Translations under genes and position numbers: made by a program
The notes under the pieces: model-generated
What the model saw: the letters and a program-made list of their open reading frames with translations, nothing else
Told to the model about the DNA's origin: nothing
The model's database searches: none
Virus genome (UHGV): UHGV-0068637
Length of the DNA: 18,257 nt
Strand: one strand, 5' to 3'
Source: a virus
Part shown: piece after piece, positions 3,185 through 16,407 of the stretch
Layout: each line of letters starts with the position of its first letter
Numbering within the stretch: the first letter of the stretch is position 1

Positions 3185-3361
3185 CGCAATGACTCCATTA
3201 TGTTAATTAACGGAATAATTCTACCATTTTGTGATCTGTGTTGCATTTTCTGCTTACACAAAATGTATTTGTTGATCTGTGTCAATATACGAAATGTGGT
3301 TTTGTCGGATATTTAAGCCACCGGGTGAACCGGATTAACCAACAAGAATGAGGGTTCAAAA
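3185..3361. promoter_or_regulatory. Divergent intergenic control region between tail fibre (-) and lipoprotein (+) genes
   Basis: 177-bp non-coding gap. Contains a 9-bp inverted repeat CATTTTGTG (3225-3233) / CACAAAATG (3257-3265), a 10-bp direct repeat TGATCTGTGT (3232-3241 and 3273-3282), and a GAGGG Shine-Dalgarno 7 nt before the ATG at 3362. No exact -35/-10 pair could be fixed by eye. Confidence 0.4.
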
Positions 3362-3613: not shown

Positions 3614-3644
3614 AAAACCCCGCGCGAAGCGGGGTTGTTTTTTA
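3614..3644. terminator. Bidirectional rho-independent terminator (lipoprotein gene / J gene convergent)
   Basis: Hairpin CCCCGC-GCGAA-GCGGGG followed by TTGTTTTTT on the plus strand, with an A-run on the other side giving a T-tract on the minus strand. Lies between the convergent stops at 3610 (+) and 3642 (-). Confidence 0.75.
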
Positions 3645-6600
3645 TATCCATGTTCCTGAACTTCTTGTTATAAGTATTAAACCTGGTTTTCTTATTGCTG
3701 CATTAGATGTATTGGTAAAGTTTTCCGTCACCTCTACTGTAATTGTTGGGTATGTGAGGCCAGATACACAGTGCACCGCGACAGTTGACATTGCTGGGGT
3801 TGATGCTGGCCTTTCTATATTAATTGTTTTTTGGTGTCCGCTTATATTTATAGTTACATTGATGCGAGAAGATTCACTATATGTATAGTATGACAAATCA
3901 TACGGAATCATAACGTAAACTGTTTTTGATAAACTTGATGAACTTGAATCAAGATAAGTTTTCGAAACGCGCCTGCTGCCATTTCCCCTCATTGACGGAA
4001 ATACATCCTCGTTTATCACTGACATACTTGCTACGTCACCAACAAAACTTGTAGCTTCAACTGCTCCAGTAAATTTACCGCCAGTTGCGTAAACAGTACC
4101 GTTAAACACACCAGCATAAGCGTATACCGTACCCCTTACGGTTACCTGGTTAAATACTGCGTCACCGGCTTTATCTATCGCCCATCCTGTACCGTTTTCC
4201 CAGCTGTAATTAACTGACTGTATTCGATCAGCTATTTTGGCGGAGTTGATAGTTCCGTCCTTAATAAACGCTTCTCTTACATACATTGCGCCATTGGTGA
4301 CATAGAAAGGCGTTATATATGTGCCGTTTGCTTCCGTCATCAACACGAAGCGGTCAACAAGGAAGATACACTGCGACTGGAAGTTAGTACCATCACCAGT
4401 GAGGCCAAGCGACATACCTGTCGCGTACGTCTTGCCGTAGTTGTCGGTTGCCAGCTTGATAGAGTACGACGCATCAACATTGCCTTTGAAGTCGGTCAAT
4501 GCTTTGGATGTCGTTTCTATTGCCGTTTTATTCCCGTTAACGGTCACTGTTAGCTGATCGATTTTCGTTGATAACGCCTCGTCAGCCGTAGCCATCGCCT
4601 GCGACCATTCAGTGATACTTGCGTCTACCAGTTCGAAGGACGCTGAGATCTGGCTGAATTTTTCAGCGTTTGATTCCTCATGCGTAGCTAGTGCCGTTGA
4701 TACCTCAGATACTTTCGAGTTGATTTCACCGGTAAGCGATGCGCTAAGGCCGCTTATTGCGTCTGCGCGTGCTTTTGTTTCGTCGGCGATAGCCTTGTCC
4801 ATCCTGGTAATGTTGCTCGTTACCTTGCTGTCAAGCGTTGAGATTGATGCATTCACACCGCTGATTGCTTCGCCGCGTGCACTGGTTTCGTCCGCAATGG
4901 CTTTATCGAGGCGGTTAATGCTTGCTTCCGTTTTCTTATCAAGATCTGTGATAGATGCGTTCACACCACTAATGGCTTCCGCTGTTGCCTTTTTCTCTTC
5001 CGCCATAACCTTGTCAATGCGGTCGATTTTCGCATTGGCTTCCCTGATCCCTTTCTTGTATTTGGCTGAAAGGGCAACATGCGTGTTGGTCTGAGCGATT
5101 GAGTTATTGATAAGTGCAATCGAGGTATTCTGCATACTTGCTTTGGTCTGGTTGATTTCATCGCTGTTTTTCTCAACGTTGTTTTCAACCGCACCAAGTT
5201 CGGCGCTGATACCGGATATTGCCTGCGCACGGGCGCTTGACTCGTCGGCAATGGCCTGATCCAGGCGCTTGACGCTGGCGTTTGTGTTGTTCTCAAGCGT
5301 TGTTAAGTCTGCTTTGACCTCTGTTATTGCGTCACTTCTTGCCTTCGTTTCGTCTGATATTGCTTTATCAAGGCGGGAAACGCTGGCGTCTGTTTTCTTG
5401 TCAAGGGTGTCGATCGATGCCTTCACGCCACTGATGGCCTGTGCGCGTGCGCTGGCCTCGTCAGCGATTGCCTGGTCGAGTCTGTTCACCTCTGATTCAG
5501 TGTTGCCTTCAAGCGTGCTGATGCTTGCATTAACGCTGCTGATAGCGTCAGTGCGTGCCTTCGTTTCGTCTGCAATCGCTTTATCAAGGCGATTAACGTT
5601 ACTTGTTACCTTGCCGTCAAGTGTGGAGATTGATGCCTTCACACCATTGATGGCTTCGGTTCTCGCGCTCGTTTCGTCGGCAATAGCCTTATCAAGGCGG
5701 CTTATGCTTGAATCGGTTTTCTTATCAAGTGCTGATACTGAGGCGTTCACCCCATTGATAGCTTCTGAGCGTGCGCTTGTTTCGTCTGCAATAGCTTGAT
5801 CCAGACGTTTAACGCTGGCGTCTGTTTTCTTGTCAAGTGCTGAAATGCTTGCGTTAACGTCGCTGACAGCCTGGGTTCGTGCGCTCGATTCATCGGCGAT
5901 TGCCTGGTCCAGACGTTTAACGCTGGCGTCAGTTTTCTTGTCAAGATTGTCTATTGAGGCGTTCACACCGTTAATAGCTTCGGCGCGTGCGCTGGCCTCG
6001 TCAGCCACTGCACGTTCCACGCTAGAAATCTGACCTTTAAGGTTGGAATCCATCGTGTTCATTTCTGCCGTGATGGTTTCCAGTGATTCCGCTGTCGCTT
6101 TTTTCTCTTCAGCGATAACGTTGTCAATACGGTCAATTTCCGCTTTCGTTTCCGTCCTGCCTTTCTTATACTGGGCGGTAAGGGTTACGCGCGTGTTTGT
6201 CTGTGCAAGCGAGTTGTTGATAAGCGCCAATGAAGCGTTTTGCAGGCTTGCTTTTGCCTGTGCCAGTTCGCTGTCAACTTTTTCGCTTGACACTTCTAAT
6301 AAGTCGATTCTGGACTCATGCTGACCAATATCATCGGCGTTCTCTTTAACTTTTTTGTAGAGATCTTCCGTTTCTTTTTTAAGCGTATCGGTGTCAGCTT
6401 TTATTGTTCCTGTTTCCGTGATCAGATTGTCAGTGTCAGTCCTTAAATCTTCAGTTATGTTGTTCAGGTTGTCGGTTTCGGTCCTTAAATCTTCAGTTAC
6501 GCTGGTAAGGTTGTCAGTTGTAGTTTTGAGGCTGTCAGTAGCAGTTTTCAGTTCTTCCGTGACACCATCAATGACATCGGCGCGGTCGCCAAGATCTTTG

Positions 6601-9083
6601 ATGTCACTAATCATATCTTTGAACTGCTCAGACTCCATGACGTCCTTCATCACGTAGTCGCTGATTTCGTCGAAGTTTTCAGTCGGTTTACCTGATGCCT
6701 CAACGAAGTCTGACACACCAAAGGCATTGCGCGTGCGCACATAGACGTAATAGGTGCGGCCCGTGTTCATGCCGCCAAACGTCCACTGATAACCACGTCC
6801 GGTGTATTGTGCCTTAGTGGTCACTGATGCCGGATCTGTGATTTGATTTTCACCAGCGAAATAGAACTCATAACTAGTGTCAGTGGTGAGCGTTGTTCTG
6901 CTAATCGGGTAAACTGTGGCCTGAAATACACCAGGAACCCAGTTGACACCTATCGGGGCCGCTGGCGCACCAATAACCAGGTCCACAATGCTTTCCGCAC
7001 CCTTCATGCCCGTGTCGTTTCTGCCACGGATGCCTAACGAATAGGTTCCCGCATCAATGCCATAAAAATCATGGCTGTAATTAGTGGTTTCGTAGTATTT
7101 AACCACCGCTCCCGCTGTATTGTATACGCGGATCTCAAAGGTAAGACGATGAGTTGTTGTCATCGTTTCCCATGTTGCGCGACATTGAACCGTTTCGGAT
7201 CCAACGTTCATCACTTTCAGGTTTTCAATGTTAGGCACGCGGAAGTGATTGAGCGTGTCGTTGTTGACTTCAAAGACTGCACCTTCATCAACTACAGCCT
7301 GTTTGTGAGGATCGTGCTGTGCCGCCTCTATGGTGTACACGCTGTTGTTTTCAGTTTCCGCAACGCTGACGATTCGACATAACACGGGTTTAGCTGCGTC
7401 TGTTGACACGGCGAACACAGTACCGTTACGAATCCATGCAGGGGCGGATGCAAGGGTAATTTGGTTCACGTTAACACCAGTGATCTGATGTTTTTTAAAC
7501 TTGCCATCACTGTCAAGCAGGCTGATGGTATCACCAGGGGCGATATATTCAGAGTCAACATTATCTACAGTGATAACCCTGCCACTGTTTGCCACGATGC
7601 GACCGCCCAAACGAGCGCCTGCGCGGTTATTGTCGAGTATCTCGATAATATCACCAGGGGTGAAGTGAATCGCGTCACGGGCCATTTTAAACGTGAATTT
7701 TGAGGGTTCGCGTTTTGCTGTTTCTATCAGCCATTTGCCAGCGCGGTAAGCCTGCCCGCGTGACGTGCAACCAAAAGCCTCCAACGTGGTTTCGTTGTAA
7801 CCATCGCGGGCGATCAGTTCATCATCTGCTACGTATTCTTTTGATTGTTCCCAACCGTTTTCCGGGTCAGTCCATGACACAATCACAGCGTTGTAAGATT
7901 CCGCGCGGGCGATACTTGAACGAGTAAATGCGCCATCAACGACGTTTGCATTCGTGATGGTGGCAATTGGATCTTGCGGTGCATCAATCATCACCGTAAG
8001 GCGCTGCCCGTCCCATAACGCGATACCACGGAACATGCCTGCAATGTTGTCCAGCAAGTCGCGGGCGCTCATTTGCTCAGTGATGTAAGCGTTAAGCGTC
8101 ATGCGTGGTTCAAGGCCGCCGTAACCGTCGTTTACCAACTGGTCGCAGTATTGAGAAAGCACATATAATGCGCCATCATCAACGTCAATGTAACCGGCGT
8201 GGCGGGTAAGCCCGAAGCGTTCATTTTTCACCAGATACCGGAAAAGCCATGCAGGGTTGTTGGTGTATGCCTTTTTGAAGCCACCAAGCCATAAACCTGA
8301 GTATGTGCGTGTTTCCGGGTCGTAGTTATCAGGCACGTCAACAATCAGGCCGCGCATGTGATAGGTGCGTGTCGGCGTGTCGGTATACTGATCGTGGTCA
8401 ATTACCGCGCCTGCTACAGCGGTGTGAGGATAAGACAAGTTATCGTCTATTATCTCGCTGTAACTGCTCCACCTGGTGTCATTGCGAAGTAGATCGCTTT
8501 TACTGTCTGGCGTTACGCGACGAACGCGAATATCAAACGGTTTTTCATCCGGCGCTTGGATGATGTGCGCTTCCATATACTCGCCGCTTTGTTTACCAGG
8601 GCCAATGGTAATATCTTTGACTAGTGACCACGTTGTTGACGATGATGGCTTAACATCAACCATCAACACAACAGATGTATTGTATTGATTGCCCTTGTCA
8701 TCTGACTGAACCAGAGAATCAACGCCAAGATTCAGCCTTACGCGGTTAACGTTTGGATCTGAAACGGTCCTGATTATTGGCGTATCGTGAGTCACTTTTG
8801 CGTTAACAATAACGGTTGATTCAATGGCGTTGAAGCCGTTGATTGGTGACTGGTCAGCCGTACCATTACGCCACGCCACGCTAACGCCAGGGACCGATGT
8901 GCCGCCGTTGGCGTCAGTGATTGGGCTGTCATTAAGCATTACGCTGTTTAATGGCGCTTTCTGGTTTACAGGGCCGTAGATTGGGCCTTCGCTGAGAATG
9001 TCCAAAACACGATAAAACTGTTTATGAAACAGGTTATCGTTTAATAATGTTGGTGTTTTGGCTTTGCCGCCGCCGCTACTCAT
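3642..9083 (-). CDS. J: Host specificity / central tail fibre protein (lambda J family) with large coiled-coil repeat insertion
   Basis: 1813-aa ORF with AGGAGA RBS. The N-terminal ~800 aa is collinear with lambda J ('ILSEGPIYGPV', 'NPAWLFRYLV...RFGL', 'LSQYCDQLV.DG.GG.EPRMT.NAY', 'EAFGCTSRGQAYRAGKWLI'), followed by FN3-like segments. The C-terminal ~300 aa is a J-like receptor-binding region. About 650 aa of repeat-rich alpha-helical sequence sits in between. Confidence 0.9.
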   Translation of the reverse strand: MSSGGGKAKTPTLLNDNLFHKQFYRVLDILSEGPIYGPVNQKAPLNSVMLNDSPITDANGGTSVPGVSVAWRNGTADQSPINGFNAIESTVIVNAKVTHDTPIIRTVSDPNVNRVRLNLGVDSLVQSDDKGNQYNTSVVLMVDVKPSSSTTWSLVKDITIGPGKQSGEYMEAHIIQAPDEKPFDIRVRRVTPDSKSDLLRNDTRWSSYSEIIDDNLSYPHTAVAGAVIDHDQYTDTPTRTYHMRGLIVDVPDNYDPETRTYSGLWLGGFKKAYTNNPAWLFRYLVKNERFGLTRHAGYIDVDDGALYVLSQYCDQLVNDGYGGLEPRMTLNAYITEQMSARDLLDNIAGMFRGIALWDGQRLTVMIDAPQDPIATITNANVVDGAFTRSSIARAESYNAVIVSWTDPENGWEQSKEYVADDELIARDGYNETTLEAFGCTSRGQAYRAGKWLIETAKREPSKFTFKMARDAIHFTPGDIIEILDNNRAGARLGGRIVANSGRVITVDNVDSEYIAPGDTISLLDSDGKFKKHQITGVNVNQITLASAPAWIRNGTVFAVSTDAAKPVLCRIVSVAETENNSVYTIEAAQHDPHKQAVVDEGAVFEVNNDTLNHFRVPNIENLKVMNVGSETVQCRATWETMTTTHRLTFEIRVYNTAGAVVKYYETTNYSHDFYGIDAGTYSLGIRGRNDTGMKGAESIVDLVIGAPAAPIGVNWVPGVFQATVYPISRTTLTTDTSYEFYFAGENQITDPASVTTKAQYTGRGYQWTFGGMNTGRTYYVYVRTRNAFGVSDFVEASGKPTENFDEISDYVMKDVMESEQFKDMISDIKDLGDRADVIDGVTEELKTATDSLKTTTDNLTSVTEDLRTETDNLNNITEDLRTDTDNLITETGTIKADTDTLKKETEDLYKKVKENADDIGQHESRIDLLEVSSEKVDSELAQAKASLQNASLALINNSLAQTNTRVTLTAQYKKGRTETKAEIDRIDNVIAEEKKATAESLETITAEMNTMDSNLKGQISSVERAVADEASARAEAINGVNASIDNLDKKTDASVKRLDQAIADESSARTQAVSDVNASISALDKKTDASVKRLDQAIADETSARSEAINGVNASVSALDKKTDSSISRLDKAIADETSARTEAINGVKASISTLDGKVTSNVNRLDKAIADETKARTDAISSVNASISTLEGNTESEVNRLDQAIADEASARAQAISGVKASIDTLDKKTDASVSRLDKAISDETKARSDAITEVKADLTTLENNTNASVKRLDQAIADESSARAQAISGISAELGAVENNVEKNSDEINQTKASMQNTSIALINNSIAQTNTHVALSAKYKKGIREANAKIDRIDKVMAEEKKATAEAISGVNASITDLDKKTEASINRLDKAIADETSARGEAISGVNASISTLDSKVTSNITRMDKAIADETKARADAISGLSASLTGEINSKVSEVSTALATHEESNAEKFSQISASFELVDASITEWSQAMATADEALSTKIDQLTVTVNGNKTAIETTSKALTDFKGNVDASYSIKLATDNYGKTYATGMSLGLTGDGTNFQSQCIFLVDRFVLMTEANGTYITPFYVTNGAMYVREAFIKDGTINSAKIADRIQSVNYSWENGTGWAIDKAGDAVFNQVTVRGTVYAYAGVFNGTVYATGGKFTGAVEATSFVGDVASMSVINEDVFPSMRGNGSRRVSKTYLDSSSSSLSKTVYVMIPYDLSYYTYSESSRINVTINISGHQKTINIERPASTPAMSTVAVHCVSGLTYPTITVEVTENFTNTSNAAIRKPGLILITRSSGTWI
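4730..6040 (-). repeat. In-frame 108-bp tandem repeat array (about 10 copies, 36-aa unit) inside the J-like gene
   Basis: The motif 'tcaag...gcgcgtgcgctggcctcgtcagc' recurs with exact 540-bp (5 x 108) spacing, e.g. 5401 vs 5941 and 5451 vs 5991. The protein unit is 'DKKTDASVKRLDQAIADESSARTQAVSDVNASISAL' and variants. The array is split into two blocks (about 2.5 and about 7.5 copies) by a duplicated ~250-bp spacer segment. Confidence 0.85.
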
Positions 9084-9627: not shown

Positions 9628-10301
9628 TTGTCAGATCTCCATATTGAATTAGTCTGTCGAACATACGCGGGCCGCATTTGCTCGCGGCGGCTTAACAGTC
9701 CGGCATTGTCATGATGCAAAACAGTGTTGTCACCAAGGTAAATCATCGCGTGGCATGGATCTGCACCCTTAAACGGCTGACGAATAATCACATCACCAGG
9801 CTGAATACTTTGCGCGTCAACCATGAAAAACCCGTTCAATGGCAGGTTTTTTATGTACAGGTTTTCCCCACGCAGCCACCACCCATCGTGGCGCTCAAAG
9901 TCCGGCAGATCCACGCCGCAAAGGTGATAGGCGTCACGAAAAAGCGAGTAACAATCCGTTTTCCCGTGCTCAAATTTACGGCCCAACAGGTGCGCAACCG
10001 GGCGGAATTTTCTTACCATGCCACCGGAACACAAATACCACGGCAGGCCGGAAATAACCTGTTGCTGCCGATCCCGTGCTGACAATACCAACGAATCGTC
10101 AGTATGGGAGTGAAAAACGGCTGTTATAACGCCTAATTCGTCAGCTTTGATATAATCGTCAGGCGAGATTTTAAAGCTGTTGTGAGGCGTTTCAGACACG
10201 TTTAAACACGGGTAAAAATAATCGTTATCTATCACCAGCCCGCATACTTCCTCGTCAGGGTGGGCCGCTGCATAGCGAATCATTTTATCTTCAAGCGCCA
10301 T
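9570..10301 (-). CDS. K: Tail assembly protein K-like (MPN/JAB + NlpC/P60 domains)
   Basis: 'HPDEEVCGLV...HSH' (JAMM-like) followed by 'GKTDCYSLFRDAYH...QPGDVI...HAMIYLGDNTVLHH' (NlpC/P60-like), collinear with lambda K. Start chosen at the ATG at 10299-10301 (AAGGTGGG RBS) rather than the TTG at 10307 used by the ORF track. Confidence 0.85.
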   Translation of the reverse strand: MALEDKMIRYAAAHPDEEVCGLVIDNDYFYPCLNVSETPHNSFKISPDDYIKADELGVITAVFHSHTDDSLVLSARDRQQQVISGLPWYLCSGGMVRKFRPVAHLLGRKFEHGKTDCYSLFRDAYHLCGVDLPDFERHDGWWLRGENLYIKNLPLNGFFMVDAQSIQPGDVIIRQPFKGADPCHAMIYLGDNTVLHHDNAGLLSRREQMRPAYVRQTNSIWRSDKCSNLDLRAIFEDITARCV

Positions 10302-10303
10302 AA

Positions 10304-11008
10304 TCAACCCACCTTGCTGGATCCTGGGAAACAGGAAATTGGTAACGGATTAGGACGCGGAAAACGCAAACGGCAACCGCTCAGGCGGTGGCTGCATTTA
10401 TCCAGCTTCGGATCACTGGTTGGCTTGTCTTTGTCAGTAGCTACGGGGCCGCCACTGTATCTGCAACCGTCACCGCGATATTGCCACTGGCAAACGTCAG
10501 CGAGGATTGTGCGCCCAGGTATAACCGCTTTATCTGCATCAATTGGCGTTGACAGTTCATATTGCACCTGGTCCGCTGTTTCTTCGCTCATCGCTTCAAC
10601 GACGTAAAAAGATACAGCCTCAATAGATGGATCTGCATCCGGGTTGCCATTGGGGAAGTTGACGGCGTCCAGGTATTTTACTTCCACCTGGCGGCGTGTA
10701 ACCTTCATTCCTCGCAGATCGTTGAAATCGTTATTCATCCCAGTGATTAGGCCGCCAATGTTGGCTACGACCATTTGGGGGCGTGAGTAAACGCCTTCGT
10801 TTTTCATTTCGAAGCCAGTAGCCTCGATTGGGTAGCTGTTGTAAGCCAATCCCTTCCAGATAACCGGGCCGTAATAGCCATTCGCGCCGGAATGGAAGCG
10901 GATAACCTCGCCACCCAGGGGCGTCAGGTCCAGTTCAAATAAGTCAATGACCGCGCCGACTCCGGCATCCACGGAATCAATAATCATTTCTGTAGGTATG
11001 CTGCGCAT
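10304..11008 (-). CDS. L: Minor tail protein L-like
   Basis: 234-aa ORF with AAGGTGA RBS. 'VIDLFELDLTPLGGEV..F', 'GLAYNSYPIEATGFEMKNEG', 'KYLDAVNFPNGNP', 'ILADVCQWQYRGDGCRYSGGPVATD...DKCSHRLSGCRLRF' are collinear with lambda L including the Cys cluster. Confidence 0.85.
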   Translation of the reverse strand: MRSIPTEMIIDSVDAGVGAVIDLFELDLTPLGGEVIRFHSGANGYYGPVIWKGLAYNSYPIEATGFEMKNEGVYSRPQMVVANIGGLITGMNNDFNDLRGMKVTRRQVEVKYLDAVNFPNGNPDADPSIEAVSFYVVEAMSEETADQVQYELSTPIDADKAVIPGRTILADVCQWQYRGDGCRYSGGPVATDKDKPTSDPKLDKCSHRLSGCRLRFPRPNPLPISCFPGSSKVG

Positions 11009-11061
11009 TTTATCACCTTGTCATTTTGTGATCGCCATCACGCTAAATCATACCAAAACGG

Positions 11062-11093
11062 TTGATCGCGTTTTTTACAATATGTATATTGTA
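11062..11093 (+). promoter_or_regulatory. Candidate sigma70 promoter with palindromic operator for cassette A
   Basis: TTGATC (11062-11067), 17-bp spacer, TATATT (11085-11090). The perfect inverted repeat TACAATAT-gt-ATATTGTA (11076-11093) overlaps the -10. Confidence 0.4.
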
Positions 11094-11136
11094 CTCAAAA
11101 GGAAGCATGGTTAACAAAATGGCGCGGAGGTGTGAC

Positions 11137-11292
11137 ATGGCTGATAAGGTGTGGAGGTTGACGGTGTTCCTTAGTGATGGCAGGGAAATGACTGTGGCCC
11201 TGTATAAAGATGAAGGCGAGGCACTTACTGACGCGCTATTACTCGCTGAAGACGAACGCGTTTTGGGGTACAGGATCGAACCTGTCAAATGA
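11137..11292 (+). CDS. Hypothetical small acidic protein (cassette A, ORF1)
   Basis: 51-aa ORF, GGAGG 6 nt upstream of the ATG. First gene after the candidate promoter. No recognisable family. Confidence 0.5.
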   Translation: MADKVWRLTVFLSDGREMTVALYKDEGEALTDALLLAEDERVLGYRIEPVK

Positions 11293-11307
11293 GGGTTATA
11301 ACAAAAA

Positions 11308-11661
11308 ATGGAAAAATACAGATTAGACGTGTGGACTGATAAATACGAATGGGAACGCATGGGGCTATTTGATACATATGAATCAGCGTGTGATGAAGGT
11401 AGTGAATTACTGCGCTGTTGGTCTAATGCTCGTTATTATTATGTTGTTCCAGTACAAGTACCGGATAAGGTGGAAGAGATGAACCCGAAAGATATTAACT
11501 TTAACGTCAATGTTGAATTTGCAGACTCTATGGATCAGGCTTGCCCTGGTGAAATACACGCAAAAGGTTTTCCGGCTGACGATCCAGAAGCAAAACGAGA
11601 ATACGAAAAAGCGGCAAAAGACTTCTGCATAGATAACCTGGGCTGTTTTAATGGCAAATAA
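11308..11661 (+). CDS. Hypothetical acidic Cys-containing protein (cassette A, ORF2)
   Basis: 117-aa ORF with protein-like composition, whereas the antisense frames are Phe/Cys/Ile-rich junk. Lies in an AT-rich region. RBS is weak. Confidence 0.55.
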   Translation: MEKYRLDVWTDKYEWERMGLFDTYESACDEGSELLRCWSNARYYYVVPVQVPDKVEEMNPKDINFNVNVEFADSMDQACPGEIHAKGFPADDPEAKREYEKAAKDFCIDNLGCFNGK

Positions 11662-11676
11662 ATAGTAGGCCAATAT

Positions 11677-11916
11677 ATGAAAATGATTGGTATTATAAAA
11701 CTCGTTGTTACATCTAACAAAAGGGAGGATTTTAATATAAAAGATAGATACCCATTATTCAAAACATCTTCTGGCAATTATTTTACTGTTGACAACTGTT
11801 TAAACTTTGTTCCGCTGACTGTGCTTGATATTTCTGGAGCAAGGGTGAAAGGGTACGGAACTGCTTGCGGTGATGATTTTGTGCCTGATATGCTATTTTT
11901 TGAAACGTGGGAATAA
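11677..11916 (+). CDS. Hypothetical protein (cassette A, ORF3)
   Basis: 79-aa ORF, weak RBS, start could be 11677 or 11683. No recognisable family. Confidence 0.45.
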   Translation: MKMIGIIKLVVTSNKREDFNIKDRYPLFKTSSGNYFTVDNCLNFVPLTVLDISGARVKGYGTACGDDFVPDMLFFETWE

Positions 11917-11921
11917 AAATC

Positions 11922-12188
11922 ATGGGGCGGCGCAATCACGGTGATTATGTGTACACGTTGAAACAGGCCGCCCGCCTCATCGGTTATCATGAGCACGAAT
12001 TTATTAATTTGCTGATTGAGCGCGGGATACTTTACCAGGTCTGTTTAACGCTGTACCCGAAAGCTAAATACCTACAGGAAAAGTTATTCATCATCATGAC
12101 GGATGAAAACCAGGTCAATCACTCATTCGTCACTGATAAAGGTGTCAACTATCTGCGCGATAACTTACAGGGCGGCAATTATGGATAA
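11922..12188 (+). CDS. Putative small helix-turn-helix DNA-binding protein (cassette A, ORF4)
   Basis: About 89 aa from the ATG at 11922 (the ORF track uses GTG at 11907). The N-terminal 'YTLKQAARLIGYHEHEFINLLIERGIL' has the pattern of an HTH recognition unit (excisionase / AlpA / MerR-like). Confidence 0.5.
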   Translation: MGRRNHGDYVYTLKQAARLIGYHEHEFINLLIERGILYQVCLTLYPKAKYLQEKLFIIMTDENQVNHSFVTDKGVNYLRDNLQGGNYG

Positions 12189-12252
12189 GGTTATCGAAAA
12201 TGTTTTGGTAGTGGCTGGCGCAATTGCCATCGTTTATGCCTTTATGAACTAA
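12181..12252 (+). CDS. Possible 23-aa hydrophobic peptide (cassette A, ORF5)
   Basis: MDKVIENVLVVAGAIAIVYAFMN. Overlaps the stop of ORF4. Very short and hand-called, so it may not be translated. Confidence 0.3.
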   Translation: MDKVIENVLVVAGAIAIVYAFMN

Positions 12253-12263
12253 TGGGGTGAATC

Positions 12264-12401
12264 ATGAAAATCGAAGTTTTAGCACTGATTGTAATGGGCT
12301 TGATTGTCTTCGGTGTTCACGCTGCTGGTTGGGACTGGGCGGCAATAGCAAACAACATGGCGCACGCTCACCCAATGAGTTTGCTGTATATTCACTACTA
12401 A
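12264..12401 (+). CDS. Small single-pass membrane peptide (cassette A, ORF6)
   Basis: 45-aa ORF, GGGGTGA RBS 4 nt upstream. The N-terminus 'IEVLALIVMGLIVFGV' is hydrophobic. A terminator follows directly. Confidence 0.45.
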   Translation: MKIEVLALIVMGLIVFGVHAAGWDWAAIANNMAHAHPMSLLYIHY

Positions 12402-12403
12402 CA

Positions 12404-12440
12404 AGAAAAACCCCGCGCGAAGCGGGGTTGTTATTATACG
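12404..12440. terminator. Bidirectional rho-independent terminator (near-identical copy of the 3614-3644 hairpin)
   Basis: CCCCGCGCGAAGCGGGGTTGTT is identical to 3618-3639. There are A/T runs on both sides, between the convergent stops at 12401 (+) and 12434 (-). Confidence 0.7.
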
Positions 12441-12631
12441 CCATCAACCAAAAATAAAACCTCCTTGCCTTCCCTGGATCTGCATCCCACATACCCGTCA
12501 CCAACATCATGAAGATACCAGGTATCGCCATTGTCAGCCTTTACAGTAAGGTCGTTGATCTCATAGTCGTCAAACAATGTAAAAGCGTCAGTTTTGTCAA
12601 CTACACAAGTCCCGTACATAACAACCTCCAT
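12434..12631 (-). CDS. Hypothetical 65-aa protein translationally coupled to M
   Basis: Its ATG (12629-12631) overlaps the TAA of the M-like gene (TAATG arrangement). Same strand as the tail genes, followed by a terminator. No recognisable family. Confidence 0.45.
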   Translation of the reverse strand: MEVVMYGTCVVDKTDAFTLFDDYEINDLTVKADNGDTWYLHDVGDGYVGCRSREGKEVLFLVDGV

Positions 12632-12984
12632 TAGCCAACAACTTGTTCAAACGTTGCGTTTAGCGTGTACACAGGCCCGTCCTTAGTCATACTCCAGCTA
12701 CGGCAAACAAAAAGCCTTTGCACGCCATCCATAGACGGCGACCAGTAAAAAGCCTCGACAGCGCCGCGCGCCCTCAAGAATGCTTCTGCCTGGATCGCCA
12801 CGTTTCCACCATCACCGCATCCTGCGCTACTGCCTTTAAAAACCAGGGTGTATTTATCAAGTAATGTGTTAATCCCTTTCGCCTGGCGCTGTTCATATCC
12901 ATCACCAAGTTTAATGACTGACACATTTGGTTCCCTGGTCACGCTGTAGCTTCTTTGTGGCGTCCATTTGAAAACTTCAGGCAT
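12631..12984 (-). CDS. M: Minor tail protein M-like
   Basis: 117-aa ORF with GGGGGA RBS. 'KLGDGYEQRQAKGIN', 'FYWSPSMDG', and the C-terminal 'TLNATFEQVVG' match lambda M ('RFGDGYSQRAPAGLN', 'FLWTPPYE', 'EFSAEFEQVVN'). Confidence 0.85.
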   Translation of the reverse strand: MPEVFKWTPQRSYSVTREPNVSVIKLGDGYEQRQAKGINTLLDKYTLVFKGSSAGCGDGGNVAIQAEAFLRARGAVEAFYWSPSMDGVQRLFVCRSWSMTKDGPVYTLNATFEQVVG

Positions 12985-13073
12985 GATTCCCCCTATAAGT
13001 TACATATTGCATACATCTTTACGCGCTTCTACGCGAAAAATTAGAACTTCGTCACAAGAATTATACCCAGTTT

Positions 13074-13112
13074 ACAAAATGGCTTCACACAGGACGTAAC
13101 AAGATGTATATA
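13074..13112 (+). promoter_or_regulatory. Candidate promoter for cassette B carrying the conserved ACAAAATGGCTTCAC motif
   Basis: ACAAAATGGCTTCAC at 13074-13088 is identical to 16293-16307. -35-like TTCACA (13084-13089), 17-bp spacer, -10-like TATATA (13107-13112). Confidence 0.35.
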
Positions 13113-13154
13113 GGAAGCAAGAAGAGAAAGCAGTACCAACAAAGGAGGGGCATC

Positions 13155-13310
13155 ATGAAACGCTATGTAGTGGTAATGCTGAACAACGCATTCGAACAGG
13201 TGGAAGTAGCGATCGTTAAAGGCTTCGATGACGCATTCAAATACGGTCAATTCATGATGAATGCAAAAGAAGATGAATACCGTGATTTCTTCCTGAAAGT
13301 GGTCAGCTAA
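13155..13310 (+). CDS. Hypothetical small protein (cassette B, ORF1)
   Basis: 51-aa ORF with a very strong RBS (AAAGGAGGGG) 4 nt before the ATG. No recognisable family. Confidence 0.55.
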   Translation: MKRYVVVMLNNAFEQVEVAIVKGFDDAFKYGQFMMNAKEDEYRDFFLKVVS

Positions 13311-13328
13311 TGGATTGTGGGGTGGGTT

Positions 13329-13583
13329 ATGAAATTGGTGGCGATTGGTAAAAACCTGAAAGCACAGAAAAACGCACAGGACCGGATCATCAAAAAGGGC
13401 AAGGCCTTATTAAACGCTTTCCTGAAAAAAGAGGCCAACCCCAAAAAATTACGCGATGGCTACGGTTATAAATTTGACATCAACCCCGATTGGCGGTTAT
13501 TCAGCGAAGATCTAAAGATGTGGTTAATTATTGACCATCTGGAATACAACCGCCACTGTGGAGTAAAAGGGGCGCATAAATGA
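13329..13583 (+). CDS. Hypothetical lysine-rich basic protein (cassette B, ORF2)
   Basis: 84 aa from the ATG at 13329 (the ORF track uses GTG at 13317). GGGGTGGG upstream. The N-terminal half is highly basic. Confidence 0.5.
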   Translation: MKLVAIGKNLKAQKNAQDRIIKKGKALLNAFLKKEANPKKLRDGYGYKFDINPDWRLFSEDLKMWLIIDHLEYNRHCGVKGAHK

Positions 13584-13884: not shown

Positions 13885-13918
13885 AACCCCGGCATTGTAC
13901 CGGGGTTTTGTTTATTTG
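13885..13918. terminator. Bidirectional rho-independent terminator (cassette B / H gene convergent)
   Basis: Hairpin AACCCCGG-CATTGTA-CCGGGGTT followed by TTTTGTTTATTT. On the minus strand a T-rich tract follows the stem. Directly abuts the H stop at 13912-13914. Confidence 0.75.
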
Positions 13919-16251
13919 CGGCGAGGTTGCAACATTCCGCCAGGTCGTTGCGATTCCCTTGCCATCATTTTCATTGCTACGCGTTCCATTGTCTGTTCAA
14001 GCCTGCGACCGTCTTCGTCGCTAAATCCGTTTGTGGTCTGTACGGTGATGTTAACAGGCATATTGATGCCGCCACCATTGAAGAGATCGCGGCCAGGAAT
14101 AACCCTGCCATTTTCCCCAGGAATCATATACTGACGCCCGTTGCTCGTCTGGAATAACTCAGGAATCCCGTGTTCCCCTACGCGATACAGACTTCCACCA
14201 TTAACAGAACCACCATTATAACGTCCGCCGCCAAAAATTGACGTTGCCAGCGACATGATCGCAGAAAGTGCCGCAGCACCAGCCGCCGCCCAGCTACCAC
14301 CAGTTGACGCAGCCGTTGCCGCAGCCGCCGGGGCCGCCGCCGCAGCAATCTGACCTTGCGCCGCCACCGCGCCAGCCGTTGTACTTGCCTGGGTAGCCTT
14401 GCTTTGCGTTTCCATCATCAACTGATCTGCTATCCAGTTGGCGGCAATTTCTGATAGTTTGTTGCCAACGGTGTTAAGTATGCTACTTCCCAGGTTAGCA
14501 AAAACCTCGCTTAGTGATTGAGTACCGTTCAACAGGCCGGTAAGCGCATTACCCATGCCACCTTTTAGGCCACTGACACAAGCGCCGATCAGGCCGTTTG
14601 TGTCGCTCTGTGCCTGCCATTGTTCCCATTTCAGATCTCGGATCTGTTGCTCGTATTCCAATTGCGCCTGTCTCTGTTGCGCCTCTGTAGCGCCCAGGTC
14701 CAATAGCATTTGTTTTCTTACAGCCCATTCATTTTGCGCCTGCTTGATTGGGTCAATTTCTCCCTTAAGCTGGTCCATCGGGCTAACTATGTGGTCCCAT
14801 TTGTCGCGTAGCTCATCAACAGGGATCTGAGCTAATTCGTCTTTCAGTTCCTTGCCTATTCCTTTTTGCGCGGCCTTGTACTCAAGGAGGGTTATTTTGC
14901 CCTGGGCGAATGCAGCATCAATGGCCTTGCCGTTCTCCAGCGCTTTACGCATGGCGGCGGCGTCCTTGTTGTACTGGTCGGACACTTTTATACCTTCATC
15001 ACCAAGCCGATCAGCTTCGGATTTCTTTTGTTTTTTAGGTTTTTTCGGCTTACCAACTGGCTGATCGAATCCTGTGATCTTGCCATCGTCAGCCTCACCC
15101 TGTTTCTCCATGAACTCATCATATGCGGCGGTTGCGTTTTTAATGTCGTTTGCAAACGTCATTACTTTGCCAACGGTAGGGCCAAATTTCTTCTCGTTGT
15201 TGCTGTTTAGCTCTTCTTTGCGTTTGTCTACGATCTCCTTCATCCATTTGTAGCCATCCATTAGCGCCTTGATTGGCGTCACCATCCTGATGATTTCTTC
15301 CGCCACCTCGCCAGCTTTAACAGCAACATCGTCAAATATGTCGATGAACTCGCTACCAGCGGTTTTCAGTGTATTGAAACAGGTTGCGGCGAATTTTGCG
15401 CCTTTACCCAATCCCTCAACGCCACCAGTGATTAAGTCTATTGCTGTAACAACGCCGTCAGATATGCCGAAAAGATTATCAAGCTCTTCGACAACGCCCA
15501 TCATCTCAACTTTAAGCTCGTTGAAGGCTATGCCTGTTGTGCGCGGCAATTGTGCGAACTTCTCGTTTGTTTCCTGCGTGGAGGCCTGGATCGCGTTGAG
15601 CATCCTTTCAGCCGTGATCTTACCGTCCAGCATTTCAGCGCGGAACTGACCCATAGATAACCCCATTTGGCGGGCCATTTCCTGTACGATTGTTGGGGTA
15701 TTGTCGCGTATTGAGTTAAATTCTTCCGCCTGCAACACGCCAGCATCAATAGCCTGGCGGAACTGGCGCATGGAGTTAGATAACTGTTCCGCAGACACGC
15801 CGCCCAGACTACCAAGTTTTTGTAGCGTGCTAACCAGGTTGAGCACCTGGCCTTCCGTAGCGGATGTATTTTTTAGCGATATAGCAAGCCCTTGCCACAG
15901 GTCGCCAGTATCCTTGAGGCTTTGGCCTGTTTCTTTTGATATATCTTTCAGTCTGTTGAAAACACGTTCCGTGGCCTCCGCTTCACCTGTGAGCAGTTTG
16001 ATTTTTACGCGAAGCATTTTTGCTTGCTCCGCCATGTCAATAAACTGGCGCACAGCCTCCGCAGCAAGTAATAGATGGATAACCCTGGACAGTGCTTTGA
16101 TTGAAGTCTTAAGCGTGTTTACCTGGCGGTCAGCGCGTTTTGCGCCACGCTCGATGCTGTCAAATGCCTGGTCTGCCTGTCGTTGAGCAACGAGAAGTTG
16201 ACCAGTTTTTGCATCAACTTCGTAATAGATTGTACCTAAACTGGTTGCCAT
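13912..16251 (-). CDS. H: Tail length tape-measure protein (H-like)
   Basis: 779-aa ORF with GAGGT RBS. The N-terminal two-thirds is alpha-helical and rich in charged residues. There is a Gly/Ala-rich hydrophobic stretch near the C-terminus (AAQGQIAAAAAPAAAATAAS...SIFGGG) and a terminal 'GGSLYRVGEHGIPELF' region like lambda H. It sits directly upstream of M. Confidence 0.85.
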   Translation of the reverse strand: MATSLGTIYYEVDAKTGQLLVAQRQADQAFDSIERGAKRADRQVNTLKTSIKALSRVIHLLLAAEAVRQFIDMAEQAKMLRVKIKLLTGEAEATERVFNRLKDISKETGQSLKDTGDLWQGLAISLKNTSATEGQVLNLVSTLQKLGSLGGVSAEQLSNSMRQFRQAIDAGVLQAEEFNSIRDNTPTIVQEMARQMGLSMGQFRAEMLDGKITAERMLNAIQASTQETNEKFAQLPRTTGIAFNELKVEMMGVVEELDNLFGISDGVVTAIDLITGGVEGLGKGAKFAATCFNTLKTAGSEFIDIFDDVAVKAGEVAEEIIRMVTPIKALMDGYKWMKEIVDKRKEELNSNNEKKFGPTVGKVMTFANDIKNATAAYDEFMEKQGEADDGKITGFDQPVGKPKKPKKQKKSEADRLGDEGIKVSDQYNKDAAAMRKALENGKAIDAAFAQGKITLLEYKAAQKGIGKELKDELAQIPVDELRDKWDHIVSPMDQLKGEIDPIKQAQNEWAVRKQMLLDLGATEAQQRQAQLEYEQQIRDLKWEQWQAQSDTNGLIGACVSGLKGGMGNALTGLLNGTQSLSEVFANLGSSILNTVGNKLSEIAANWIADQLMMETQSKATQASTTAGAVAAQGQIAAAAAPAAAATAASTGGSWAAAGAAALSAIMSLATSIFGGGRYNGGSVNGGSLYRVGEHGIPELFQTSNGRQYMIPGENGRVIPGRDLFNGGGINMPVNITVQTTNGFSDEDGRRLEQTMERVAMKMMARESQRPGGMLQPRRK

Positions 16252-16289
16252 GATTTAACCTCATGAAAGTGTGATCTAGATCTCTATTC

Positions 16290-16331
16290 TATACAAAATG
16301 GCTTCACTTCAACGTATACATTTTGTATAAA
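16290..16331 (+). promoter_or_regulatory. Candidate promoter/operator for cassette C with conserved motif and 11-bp inverted repeat
   Basis: TATACAAAATG (16290-16300) and CATTTTGTATA (16319-16329) form an inverted repeat. ACAAAATGGCTTCAC at 16293-16307. -35-like TTCACT (16303-16308), 17-bp spacer, -10-like TATAAA (16326-16331). The palindrome GATCTAGATC lies just upstream (16273-16282). Confidence 0.35.
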
Positions 16332-16407
16332 GAAGTCAAAGGAAAGGGATTGAGCGAATGGATTCAGAAGGCCGGATGAACCGGAGGAAGCAAAAGAGGA
16401 TAAGAAA

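Follow-up and report, generated by a model that had tools for sequence, protein, structure and literature searches.

We found that the 18-bp palindrome in front of cassette A, a reverse-oriented moron cassette between tail genes M and L, is on balance probably the core of the cassette's promoter region, where three constrained elements overlap, and not a dyad tied to the cassette protein ORF4. The observations behind this reading are the sequence elements at the site, their conservation pattern among relatives, the recurrence of a short motif, the absence of covariation between site and protein, and the persistence of the surrounding block in genomes without ORF4.

The window, the whole stretch of 18,257 nt that was analyzed, comes from an mEp021-like (mEpimmI) temperate coliphage and covers its tail-gene region, which has 90 to 93% DNA identity to mEp021, mEp554, and others. 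The tail genes are on the minus strand, with accessory cassettes between them on the plus strand. Cassette A is a plus-strand unit between M and L that begins with ORF1 (positions 11137 to 11292; 51 aa, function unknown, phrog_29559, with GGAGGTG upstream) and continues on the same strand with ORF2 (11308 to 11661; 117 aa, function unknown, phrog_38567), ORF3 (11677 to 11916; 79 aa, no family match, missing from most relatives), ORF4 (ATG at 11922, stop at 12188; 88 aa), ORF5 (12181 to 12252; a hydrophobic peptide of 23 aa, its start overlapping the ORF4 end), and ORF6 (12264 to 12401; a 45-aa predicted membrane peptide). It is closed by an intrinsic terminator, predicted for both directions, at 12409 to 12429, and the 26 nt from 12407 to 12432 are identical to the terminator 3' of the lipoprotein gene (3614 to 3639). 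PADLOC and NCBIfam scans of all cassette ORFs returned no matches, and a comparison of the 51-aa first ORFs of cassettes A and B found no paralogy. Cassette content is variable among relatives, and two genomes, L011 (Escherichia coli MS 21-1) and L083, are without the whole cassette, including ORF4 and a 65-aa ORF; we found no cassette matches elsewhere in the MS 21-1 chromosome. The comparison shows that cassette A is a dispensable insertion. With a promoter-like site and a terminator of its own, a position between late genes M and L, and presence or absence among relatives, cassette A has the attributes of a moron, and the palindrome region is probably an ordinary moron promoter. The cassette A intergenic region is not discussed in the published genome paper of the phage group.

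The first-pass annotation had assigned a promoter to cassette A at this site, and the assignment was borne out in that the region is promoter-like and conserved. A consensus scan of the plus strand identified a -35-like hexamer, TTGATC, at 11062 to 11067 and a -10-like hexamer, TATATT, at 11085 to 11090, with a 17-bp spacer and a predicted start near A11097. This arrangement, TTGATC-17-TATATT, matches 9 of 12 consensus positions and, with A at -11, T at -7, and a spacer within the 16- to 18-bp range, has the hexamers and spacing of a sigma-70-type promoter. Among 42 unique relatives, TTGAT is invariant (the sixth base is C or A), TATATT is found in 42/42, and the hexamers are kept while the spacer varies at 11067 to 11071, as in sigma-70 promoters; conservation also extends to the spacer's 3' half, beyond the requirements of a minimal promoter. 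The call of a candidate promoter for cassette A is supported by these features of the sequence, from which we infer promoter activity and the start sites.

The palindrome itself, TACAATAT-GT-ATATTGTA, is located at 11076 to 11093, where it had been reported, and has perfect 8-bp arms around a non-symmetric GT center; its claimed overlap with the -10 hexamer is also correct, since TATATT lies inside it. It is the sole perfect inverted repeat in the window with 8-bp arms and a spacer of at most 4 nt. First-order Markov simulations of the window gave an expectation of 1.6 ± 1.5 such repeats (8-bp arms, same spacer limit), so with 1 observed the palindrome alone is not beyond chance, and the probability of one falling within the 129-nt intergenic region between L and cassette A, P of about 0.018, is a modest, post hoc figure. 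Additional copies of the 18-mer, considered as the signature of a regulon, were rejected, as mEp021 contains only one, with 2 mismatches, in the upstream region of the lipoprotein gene, and half-sites are not enriched (2 exact versus 3.0 expected; 58 with at most one mismatch versus 60 expected). A scan of IMG/VR for the 18-mer returned 53 matches, comprising 39 contigs of the same phage group already found via ORF4, one additional sequence that is the cassette-less member L083, and 13 occurrences in unrelated AT-rich contexts. A conserved promoter and a repeated short motif seem to have given rise to the palindrome by accident.

Conservation of the region was assessed in 55 related sequences, of which 42 are unique, with per-column counts taken over the unique set. 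A near-invariant 28-bp core block (11072 to 11099) sits between the -35-like hexamers of both strands and is bordered by variable flanks at 11067 to 11071 and 11100 to 11109. Inside the block, columns 11072, 11073, 11075, and 11083 vary in 1 to 5 sequences each and column 11080 in 3, while column 11091 is split between G (18 sequences) and T (24 sequences). The perfect dyad is kept in only 15/55 sequences, and it is broken in 39 of the 54 that are readable, by three independent single substitutions that give ATATTTTA in the right arm (34/55), TACAGTAT (4 sequences), or TACAATAC (1 sequence). The palindrome's variable columns are 11080, 11083, and 11091, and a compensatory change accompanies none of them. 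For the promoter reading, the dyad substitutions are neutral: 11080 is in the spacer, and 11091 is plus-strand position -6 and on the minus strand merely converts TACAAT to TAAAAT. The two genomes without cassette A retain the block up to AACAAAAT, and the deletion junction follows directly after it. The relatives are close (80 to 98% identity in the region), so part of this conservation is mere shared ancestry. Conservation exceeds the needs of a minimal sigma-70 promoter at -25 to -13 and at -6 to +3, which leaves room for a bound factor.

ORF4 is a stand-alone, N-terminally truncated KilAC/ANT domain. Its only domain is a match to Pfam PF03374 (E value of 3.7e-7; 30.9 bits versus a gathering cut-off of 25.3) that spans model positions 23 to 106 of 108, and no other family scored above threshold; ORF4 also aligns to the C-terminal ANT domain (residues 162 to 260) of the 264-aa protein P0009. 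Ant and AriS-like proteins have an N-terminal AntA/AntB, Bro-N, or pRha domain in addition to the ANT domain (PMC9043618), and ORF4 has none of these N-terminal domains; its "antirepressor" label is corrected here to a truncated stand-alone KilAC domain. According to the paper on Listeria AriS, the exact function of KilAC/ANT is still unclear, and the domain is linked to SOS inhibition, probably via RecA (PMC9043618); PMC5944126 links an isolated KilAC/ANT domain to growth inhibition. Operator binding by a KilAC domain is not reported in the literature that we found, and the few activities that are reported differ from it. The helix-turn-helix-like N terminus noted in the earlier annotation is present (TLKQAARLIGYHEHEFINLLIERGIL), and this segment does resemble a helix-turn-helix. 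An AlphaFold2 (AF2) model of ORF4, built from an 8-sequence alignment, has a pLDDT of 61, and LKQAARLIGYHEHEFINLLIERG is predicted to form a helix-turn-helix in this low-confidence model. A Foldseek search of the model against the PDB gave nothing below an E value of 5, with MerR-type and sigma-domain helix-turn-helix proteins among the non-significant neighbors, and a PDB sequence search with ORF4 gave nothing meaningful. The family is small: a word search placed the ORF4 homologues in 7 clusters, and a search of 1.84 billion representatives returned 3 matches, one being its own cluster and one apparently spurious.

These data bear on the model with which the first-pass annotation had explained the palindrome, autoregulation of cassette A by ORF4, which would act as a dimeric helix-turn-helix repressor on the 18-bp dyad over the -10, and they make it quite improbable. 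The position of the dyad over the -10, the predicted helix-turn-helix, the non-significant MerR-type and sigma-domain neighbors, and the joint occurrence of block and ORF4 in 53/55 sequences are consistent with this model. Against it, the symmetry of the dyad is neither maintained nor compensated among relatives, L011 and L083 keep the site without ORF4, the left half of the dyad is a generic repeated motif, the structure model is poor, and the activities reported for KilAC, in the literature found, are inhibition of SOS and of growth. Site and protein also do not covary, as the identical ORF4 helix-turn-helix-like segment is found with the perfect dyad and with two of the three other site variants, and the remaining variant (one sequence) has an ORF4 segment with a one-residue change that is also found with the two commonest site variants. 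From these observations we infer that ORF4 probably does not bind the palindrome. A dyad matching at 7 of 8 positions may yet act as an operator, but the idea of an operator with its autoregulator finds little support here, and ORF4 is more likely to have a protein as its target than to repress its own cassette.

The opposite strand carries promoter-like elements as well. The minus-strand scan found TTGTTA-18-TACAAT, composed of a -35-like TTGTTA at 11112 to 11117 and a -10-like TACAAT (TAAAAT in most relatives) at 11088 to 11093 that reads toward L with a predicted start near 11081. Both forms of this -10-like hexamer retain A at position 2 and T at position 6; TA(C/A)AAT is found within the palindrome in all 42 unique relatives, and AACAA of the opposite-strand -35 is invariant, with the last base varying in 5/42. 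The minus-strand -10 that the earlier annotation had read as similar to TGgTATGAT does exist as the extended -10-like TGGTATGAT, but it lies at 11047 to 11055, 3 nt from where it had been placed, and it is present in most relatives and damaged in 4/42 unique ones. The accompanying claim that this intergenic region would have to carry a divergent L-K-I-J promoter appears too strong: by annotation, these phages have a Q-like late regulator and many predicted terminators in their late region, and a dedicated promoter is not strictly required.

It is possible, though unlikely, that the symmetry at this site is functional because the site is a true bidirectional promoter, to which RNA polymerase would bind either way, starting near 11097 for cassette A or near 11081 for L-K-I-J, with the two orientations in competition. 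Bacterial bidirectional promoters are defined by divergent starts 7 to 25 bp apart (PMC10268837), and the predicted starts here, 16 bp apart, are within that range; TTGATC-17-TATATT and TTGTTA-18-TACAAT have a common core, the -35-like and -10-like hexamers of both strands are kept while the spacers vary among the 42 relatives, and the cassette-less genomes retain the sequence exactly through the minus-strand -35. Such promoters arise from the symmetry of the -10 element, with 18 bp as the modal spacing, according to Warman et al. 2021 as summarized in PMC10268837. The spacing here differs from that value, and reciprocal -11A/-7T pairing is obtained only with weaker hexamers: the reciprocal hexamer of TATATT is CAATAT (AAATAT in most relatives), which matches 3/6 positions, and the better minus-strand hexamer, TACAAT, is offset by 2 bp from the reciprocal position. 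In addition, L-K-I-J should, by annotation, be readable from the late promoter via the Q-type antiterminator, so a promoter for L is unneeded.

We also found that the left arm and center of the palindrome are one copy of a motif, ACAAnATG(TA), that is present in every strand-switch region of the tail module, with two or three copies per region in mixed orientation. In the four strand-switch intergenic regions, ACAA.ATG was observed 9 times versus 0.21 expected (0/5,000 local shuffles reach 9), and ACAANATGTA was observed 4 times in the window versus 0.20 expected, figures that are post hoc because the motif was derived from the same data. At cassette A, the copy within the palindrome (ACAATATG, 11077 to 11084) is the core of a 15-bp unit of the dyad family TATACA-N3-TGTATA (TTTACA-ATA-TGTATA, 11074 to 11088). 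A second copy, ACAAAATG, is on the minus strand at 11022 to 11029 in a well-conserved stretch (TTGT is invariant, and 11022 to 11025 vary in 1 to 6 of the 42), and a third, again ACAAAATG, is on the plus strand at 11114 to 11121, where the conserved promoter region gives way to variable cassette content. Inspected by eye, the motif has no consistent partner hexamer at 16 to 18 bp, and its reading as a -35 or -10 element was rejected.

The block could alternatively be an operator for a regulator other than ORF4, a phage-core or host protein that recognizes ACAAnATG or TATACA-N3-TGTATA, and we regard this as rather doubtful. Such sites lie in every strand-switch region and also in intergenic regions elsewhere in the genome, and since the site at cassette A covers the spacer and the -10 (about -23 to -9), a bound protein would repress this cassette and place it under joint control with the lipoprotein, ParE-like, and other cassettes. 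Apart from the motif counts, TATACANNNTGTATA with at most 2 mismatches occurs 3 times in the window versus 0.6 expected and 10 times in mEp021 versus 2.45 expected, equally post hoc values, and 9 of the 10 mEp021 matches are intergenic in a genome that is about 12% intergenic. The motif is conserved in the lipoprotein region, and upstream of the tape-measure gene its arms are invariant while the sequence between them is variable. In the other three regions, the hexamer after TG is often without the -7 T (TATAAA, TATATA, TATACA, and TATTTG), so that the motif cannot be read there as a pure -10. Variation at cassette A also follows the 15-bp unit rather than the 18-bp palindrome, as 11075 T to A perfects the unit, 11080 is in its spacer, and 11091 is outside it. 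Against such a regulator, the binding protein is hypothetical, with no candidate found, and duplication of promoter modules could account for the copies by common descent; cassette A and the lipoprotein unit also have identical terminators. Upstream of the tape-measure gene, conservation is limited to a directional 12-mer and does not include the 15-bp dyad's left arm, which makes a dimer-on-dyad model weak. A CI-like repressor was rejected as the binder because a related dyad or motif is absent from the cro-repressor intergenic region of mEp021, and a comparison of the dyads, by eye, with consensus sequences of E. coli regulators (LexA, Fur, TyrR, EvgA, MlrA, NsrR, OmpR, and others) gave nothing convincing. 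A more speculative extension is that ACAAnATG / TATACA-N3-TGTATA may define a phage-wide regulon of a single hypothetical DNA-binding protein with two or three sites in each strand-switch region of the tail module. Either a host factor or a phage-core protein, perhaps even the near-core KilAC protein, could fill this role, and it may coordinate all of the reverse-oriented accessory cassettes (those of the lipoprotein exclusion gene, the KilAC protein, and the ParE-like toxin, and the one adjoining the tape-measure gene) with the adjoining tail genes; for example, it could shut the cassettes off during late read-through transcription.

Upstream of the block, a CRP-like dyad, TGTGA-TCGCCA-TCACG, is located at 11027 to 11042, centered about 62 bp upstream of the predicted plus-strand start. 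It has one mismatch to TGTGA-N6-TCACA, and its half-sites are nearly invariant with a variable spacer in the 42 relatives; only this placement and conservation pattern are suggestive, and CRP-like sites are not enriched window-wide (14 versus 9.3 ± 3.1). That the palindrome folds into an RNA hairpin, whether in a leader or in the late antisense transcript, and thereby influences termination, translation, or processing is hardly credible, and this reading was rejected. The arms of the palindrome can pair, and late minus-strand transcription must traverse the region, but the predicted folds are weak (-5.1 and -3.7 kcal/mol, with z-scores of -1.3 and -0.9 versus shuffles), no Rfam family matches anywhere in the window, arm substitutions are without compensation, and the site is upstream of the predicted plus-strand start.

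In the preferred reading, that of a moron promoter core, the first constrained element would be the sigma-70-type promoter TTGATC-17-TATATT, pointing into the cassette; the second would be the -35/-10-like pair TTGTTA-18-TA(C/A)AAT on the opposite strand, pointing at L; and the third would be one copy of the short motif ACAAnATG(TA). The perfect 8+8 dyad would be a chance overlap of these three in the one sub-lineage with G at 11091; its symmetry is not maintained, and it would have no link to ORF4. For the annotation of the mEpimmI phages, a recently described group, the analysis is of use in that it places candidate promoters for their reverse-oriented cassettes. The motif common to all strand-switch regions is the one item that may be of larger importance: should it prove to be a regulator site, it would account for joint control of several prophage accessory genes that are embedded antisense in a late operon, among them the exclusion lipoprotein and the ParE-like toxin.

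ORF4 has the Pfam domain PF03374 in common with AriS-type ANT/KilAC regulators (Azulay et al. 2022, PMC9043618); unlike them, it has a merely putative activity, is only 88 aa long, is without an N-terminal AntA, Bro-N, or pRha domain, covers model positions 23 to 106 only, and belongs to a very isolated family. The site resembles bacterial bidirectional promoters in having a pseudo-symmetric, AT-rich core where each strand carries a -10-like hexamer and in divergent starts, predicted from sequence, that are 16 bp apart and inside the 7- to 25-bp range, whereas its spacing is not the modal 18 bp and its best hexamers are not reciprocally paired. Autoregulated pairs of repressor and operator over a promoter are exemplified by the lambda Cro/CI operators and by antitoxin operators. 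As in those pairs, a dyad lies over a promoter -10 with a small protein containing a helix-turn-helix-like segment encoded downstream, but here the dyad lacks both conservation and covariation with the protein and is retained where the protein is absent, and the ORF4 family is not a known operator binder. The morons of lambdoid phages, such as lambda bor and lom and those of HK97, are autonomous promoter-gene-terminator units inserted between late genes. Cassette A is likewise small and accessory, is flanked by M and L, both conserved tail genes, carries a promoter-like site and a terminator of its own, varies in content, and is missing as a whole from two genomes. Unlike the lambdoid morons, it has a putative expression in lysogens and is one of several cassettes that are all reverse-oriented within the tail module and have common short 5' motifs, two of them with an identical 3' terminator.

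Across 10300-13000, the DNA shares 89-93% identity with seven sequenced coliphages (mEp021, mEp554, mEp013, mEp515, mEp010, mEp044, and MagusPhagus) and also has matches in prophages from 35 out of 5,426 complete E. coli genomes. These relatives are Nus-dependent, non-lambdoid "mEpimmI" temperate phages, and the published mEpimmI genome paper makes no mention of promoters or operators of the tail region (PMC11893012). The tail genes, among them the tape-measure gene (13912-16251), M (12631-12984), L (10304-11008), K, I, and the host-specificity gene J (3642-9083; 1813 aa), are all on the minus strand, as is a 65-aa ORF (12434-12631), and the interspersed cassettes are on the plus strand. Within J lie several direct repeats, 30-125 nt long and 82-100% identical (4777-6139, minus strand), and a 24-nt near-perfect palindrome, TAATGTCGTTTGCAAACGTCATTA, lies inside the tape-measure coding sequence (15141-15164). 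Cassette A (11137-12401, plus strand), an accessory ("moron") cassette between L and M, ends in a bidirectional terminator (12409-12429). The identical 26-nt sequence AAAACCCCGCGCGAAGCGGGGTTGTT forms this terminator (12407-12432) and that of the lipoprotein gene unit (3614-3639), so that the two units share 3' ends in addition to 5' motifs.

In the intergenic region between L and cassette A, we found the palindrome TACAATAT-GT-ATATTGTA at 11076-11093, with TATATT (11085-11090) inside it, described in the first-pass annotation as the candidate -10 of a cassette A promoter, and TTGATC 17 bp upstream. The window holds one perfect inverted repeat with 8-bp arms separated by ≤4 nt, compared to 1.6 ± 1.5 expected from its size and composition, and the chance of such a repeat landing in this 129-nt intergenic region is ~0.018. 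The palindrome is real, yet on its own it is only mildly unusual.

Our alignment of this intergenic region across the window and 54 related loci comprised 42 unique sequences. Part of the conservation reflects shared ancestry, since the relatives are closely related. The TTGAT of the -35 element is invariant and TATATT is unchanged in every unique sequence, while positions 11072-11099, bounded by variable stretches at 11067-11071 and 11100-11109, are nearly invariant, as is AACAAAATG (11113-11121). Three columns vary within the palindrome: 11080 (G in 3 unique sequences), 11083 (C in 1), and 11091 (G in 18, T in 24). The palindrome is perfect in 15 of all 55 sequences; the right arm is ATATTTTA in 34, while TACAGTAT is present in 4 and TACAATAC in 1, and none of these variants carries a compensating substitution in the opposite arm. 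Thus, the perfect dyad is the marker of one sub-lineage rather than a maintained feature.

The palindrome had been proposed as an operator through which ORF4 (11922-12188) autoregulates cassette A. The HTH-like segment quoted for ORF4 is present there, but we found no positive support for autoregulation and several observations against it, beginning with the failure of the dyad to be maintained. The identical ORF4 segment, YVYTLKQAARLIGYHEHEFIDLLIERGILYQVCLTL, accompanies the perfect site, the A-to-G site, and the T-variant site, and the segment found with the lone T-to-C site differs by one residue, a variant also seen with the two commonest sites. In addition, two relatives, a locus of E. 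coli MS 21-1 and an IMG/VR contig (IMGVR_UViG_3300045988_076424), have neither cassette A with ORF4 nor the 65-aa ORF downstream of M, and retain the intergenic block through ...GTTAACAAAAT, which abuts the end of M; elsewhere, the MS 21-1 chromosome contains nothing that matches the cassette. The empty site lies at 2690-2735 of the MS 21-1 locus, the missing part corresponds to approximately 11122-12620 of the window, and in both relatives the breakpoint sits right behind AACAAAAT, at a copy of the motif described below; microhomology there spans only ~2 nt.

The sole family match of ORF4 above threshold is to the ANT/KilAC domain (PF03374; 30.9 bits against a cut-off of 25.3, model positions 23-106), and ORF4 lacks a partner domain on the N-terminal side. 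The family is very small: one search gave 7 clusters, and a second gave 3 matches among 1.84 billion representatives, including a 264-aa protein whose ANT domain is C-terminal. Azulay et al. call the exact function of KilAC/ANT unclear and report SOS inhibition, probably via RecA, by the KilAC domain of Listeria AriS on its own (PMC9043618); in E. coli, growth is inhibited by the KilA-type domain of phi11 Gp07 (PMC5944126). An AF2 model of ORF4 was poor (pLDDT 61, from a shallow alignment) and had no significant fold neighbours. ORF4 in the window also carries a 6-residue C-terminal extension, QGGNYG (12171-12188), which is missing from all 7 homologue clusters and extends over the start of an ORF for a hydrophobic 23-aa peptide (12181-12252).

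ACAATATGTA, which makes up the palindrome's left arm and centre, fits a motif, ACAANATGTA, that occurs once in each of four strand-switch intergenic regions, between the tail fibre and lipoprotein genes (3185-3361), L and cassette A (11009-11136), M and cassette B (12985-13154), and the tape-measure gene and the next cassette (16252-16407). By post hoc statistics, the four copies compare to 0.20 expected in the window (0/200 shuffles reach four), and the core ACAA.ATG occurs 9 times in the 631 nt of these regions compared to 0.21 expected from local dinucleotide-preserving shuffles (0/5000 reach 9). Each region has two or three core copies, in both orientations and some extended to ACAAnATGTA, at 3225-3232(-), 3258-3267(+), 11022-11029(-), 11077-11086(+), 11114-11121(+), 13074-13081(+), 13099-13108(+), 16293-16300(+), and 16317-16326(-). 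In the close relative mEp021, 19 of 30 core copies are intergenic, in a genome with ~12% intergenic DNA.

Many copies extend into a 15-bp dyad, TATACA-N3-TGTATA, found with ≤2 mismatches 3 times in the window (0.6 expected) and 10 times in mEp021 (2.45 expected; 9 of 10 intergenic); the region between cro and the repressor has no such site. Beside cassette A, the dyad reads TTTACA-ATA-TGTATA (11074-11088). A T-to-A change at 11075 perfects it, column 11080 falls in its spacer, and 11091 lies outside, so the variation among relatives fits this unit better than the 18-bp palindrome. Upstream of the mEp021 lipoprotein gene, we found a copy of the whole 18-mer with 2 mismatches. Conservation of the motif extends to the lipoprotein region and to the sequence upstream of cassette B. 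Just upstream of the tape-measure gene, two inverted motif copies, TATACAAAATG (16290-16300) and CATTTTGTATA (16319-16329), form an 11-bp perfect inverted repeat with an 18-nt spacer, whose arms are invariant and spacer variable in 14 relatives; this repeat exceeds the palindrome at 11076-11093 in both length and conservation. An IMG/VR contig (IMGVR_UViG_2939147180_000006), aligned to 3255-3290, has no lipoprotein gene and keeps a perfect TATACAT-T-ATGTATA dyad directly beside a terminator, again a motif without cargo.

The regions upstream of cassette B and the tape-measure gene align over ~50 nt, which suggests duplicated promoter modules; they share the 16-mer TACAAAATGGCTTCAC (13073-13088 and 16292-16307). 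Cassette B encodes a ParE-like toxin domain protein (13317-13583, plus strand; PF24732, E 8e-12) directly behind a 51-aa ORF (13155-13310, plus strand), and the two may be a toxin-antitoxin pair within the tail module. Upstream of M, TTTACGCG-CTTC-TACGCGAAAAAT (13018-13041) is almost invariant in 47 relatives and has one further copy in mEp021, near record position 28917 at the terL-portal junction.

The best-supported reading of the palindrome is an incidental overlap, within the candidate promoter core of the moron cassette, of the cassette's -10, a -10-like element on the opposite strand, and a copy of the phage-wide intergenic motif. A shared DNA-binding factor is a less likely but live alternative, and three points speak for it: the block is conserved beyond the needs of a minimal promoter; the motif recurs strongly; and the motif is not simply a -10 element, since the critical -7 T is frequently missing from the hexamer that follows TG in the other three strand-switch regions. 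If such a factor existed, the first-pass idea of an operator over the -10 could survive in a limited sense, with another dyad and another protein.

Promoter-like elements lie on both strands, each assigned by its match to consensus. On the minus strand, TTGTTA (11117-11112) and TACAAT (11093-11088) are separated by 18 bp; the G/T polymorphism at 11091 only turns TACAAT into TAAAAT, AACAA of the -35-like element is invariant in the 42 unique relatives, and both cassette-less relatives keep the sequence exactly through this element. The first-pass annotation's minus-strand TGGTATGAT is present, at 11047-11055 and thus 3 nt from where it had been placed, and is damaged in 4 of the 42. A divergent promoter for L is not strictly needed; a putative Q late regulator is among the genes of mEp021, whose late region has many predicted terminators. 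All four strand-switch regions also hold CRP-like dyads (TGTGA-N6-TCACA, 1-2 mismatches; 11027-11042, 16270-16285, 3230-3245, and 13041-13056), one of them close to the full CRP consensus (AAAgTGTGATCTAGATCtCtaTT, 16267-16289); the window-wide count is not enriched (14 observed, 9.3 expected). The dyad at 11027-11042, with nearly invariant half-sites and a variable spacer in 42 relatives, has its centre ~62 bp upstream of the start predicted for cassette A. The predicted starts, ~11097 (plus) and ~11081 (minus), would be 16 bp apart. Bidirectional promoters in bacteria are defined by a 7-25 bp range and originate in the near-symmetry of -10 elements (PMC10268837); the 16-bp distance would fall within this range, but the arrangement is not the typical 18-bp one.
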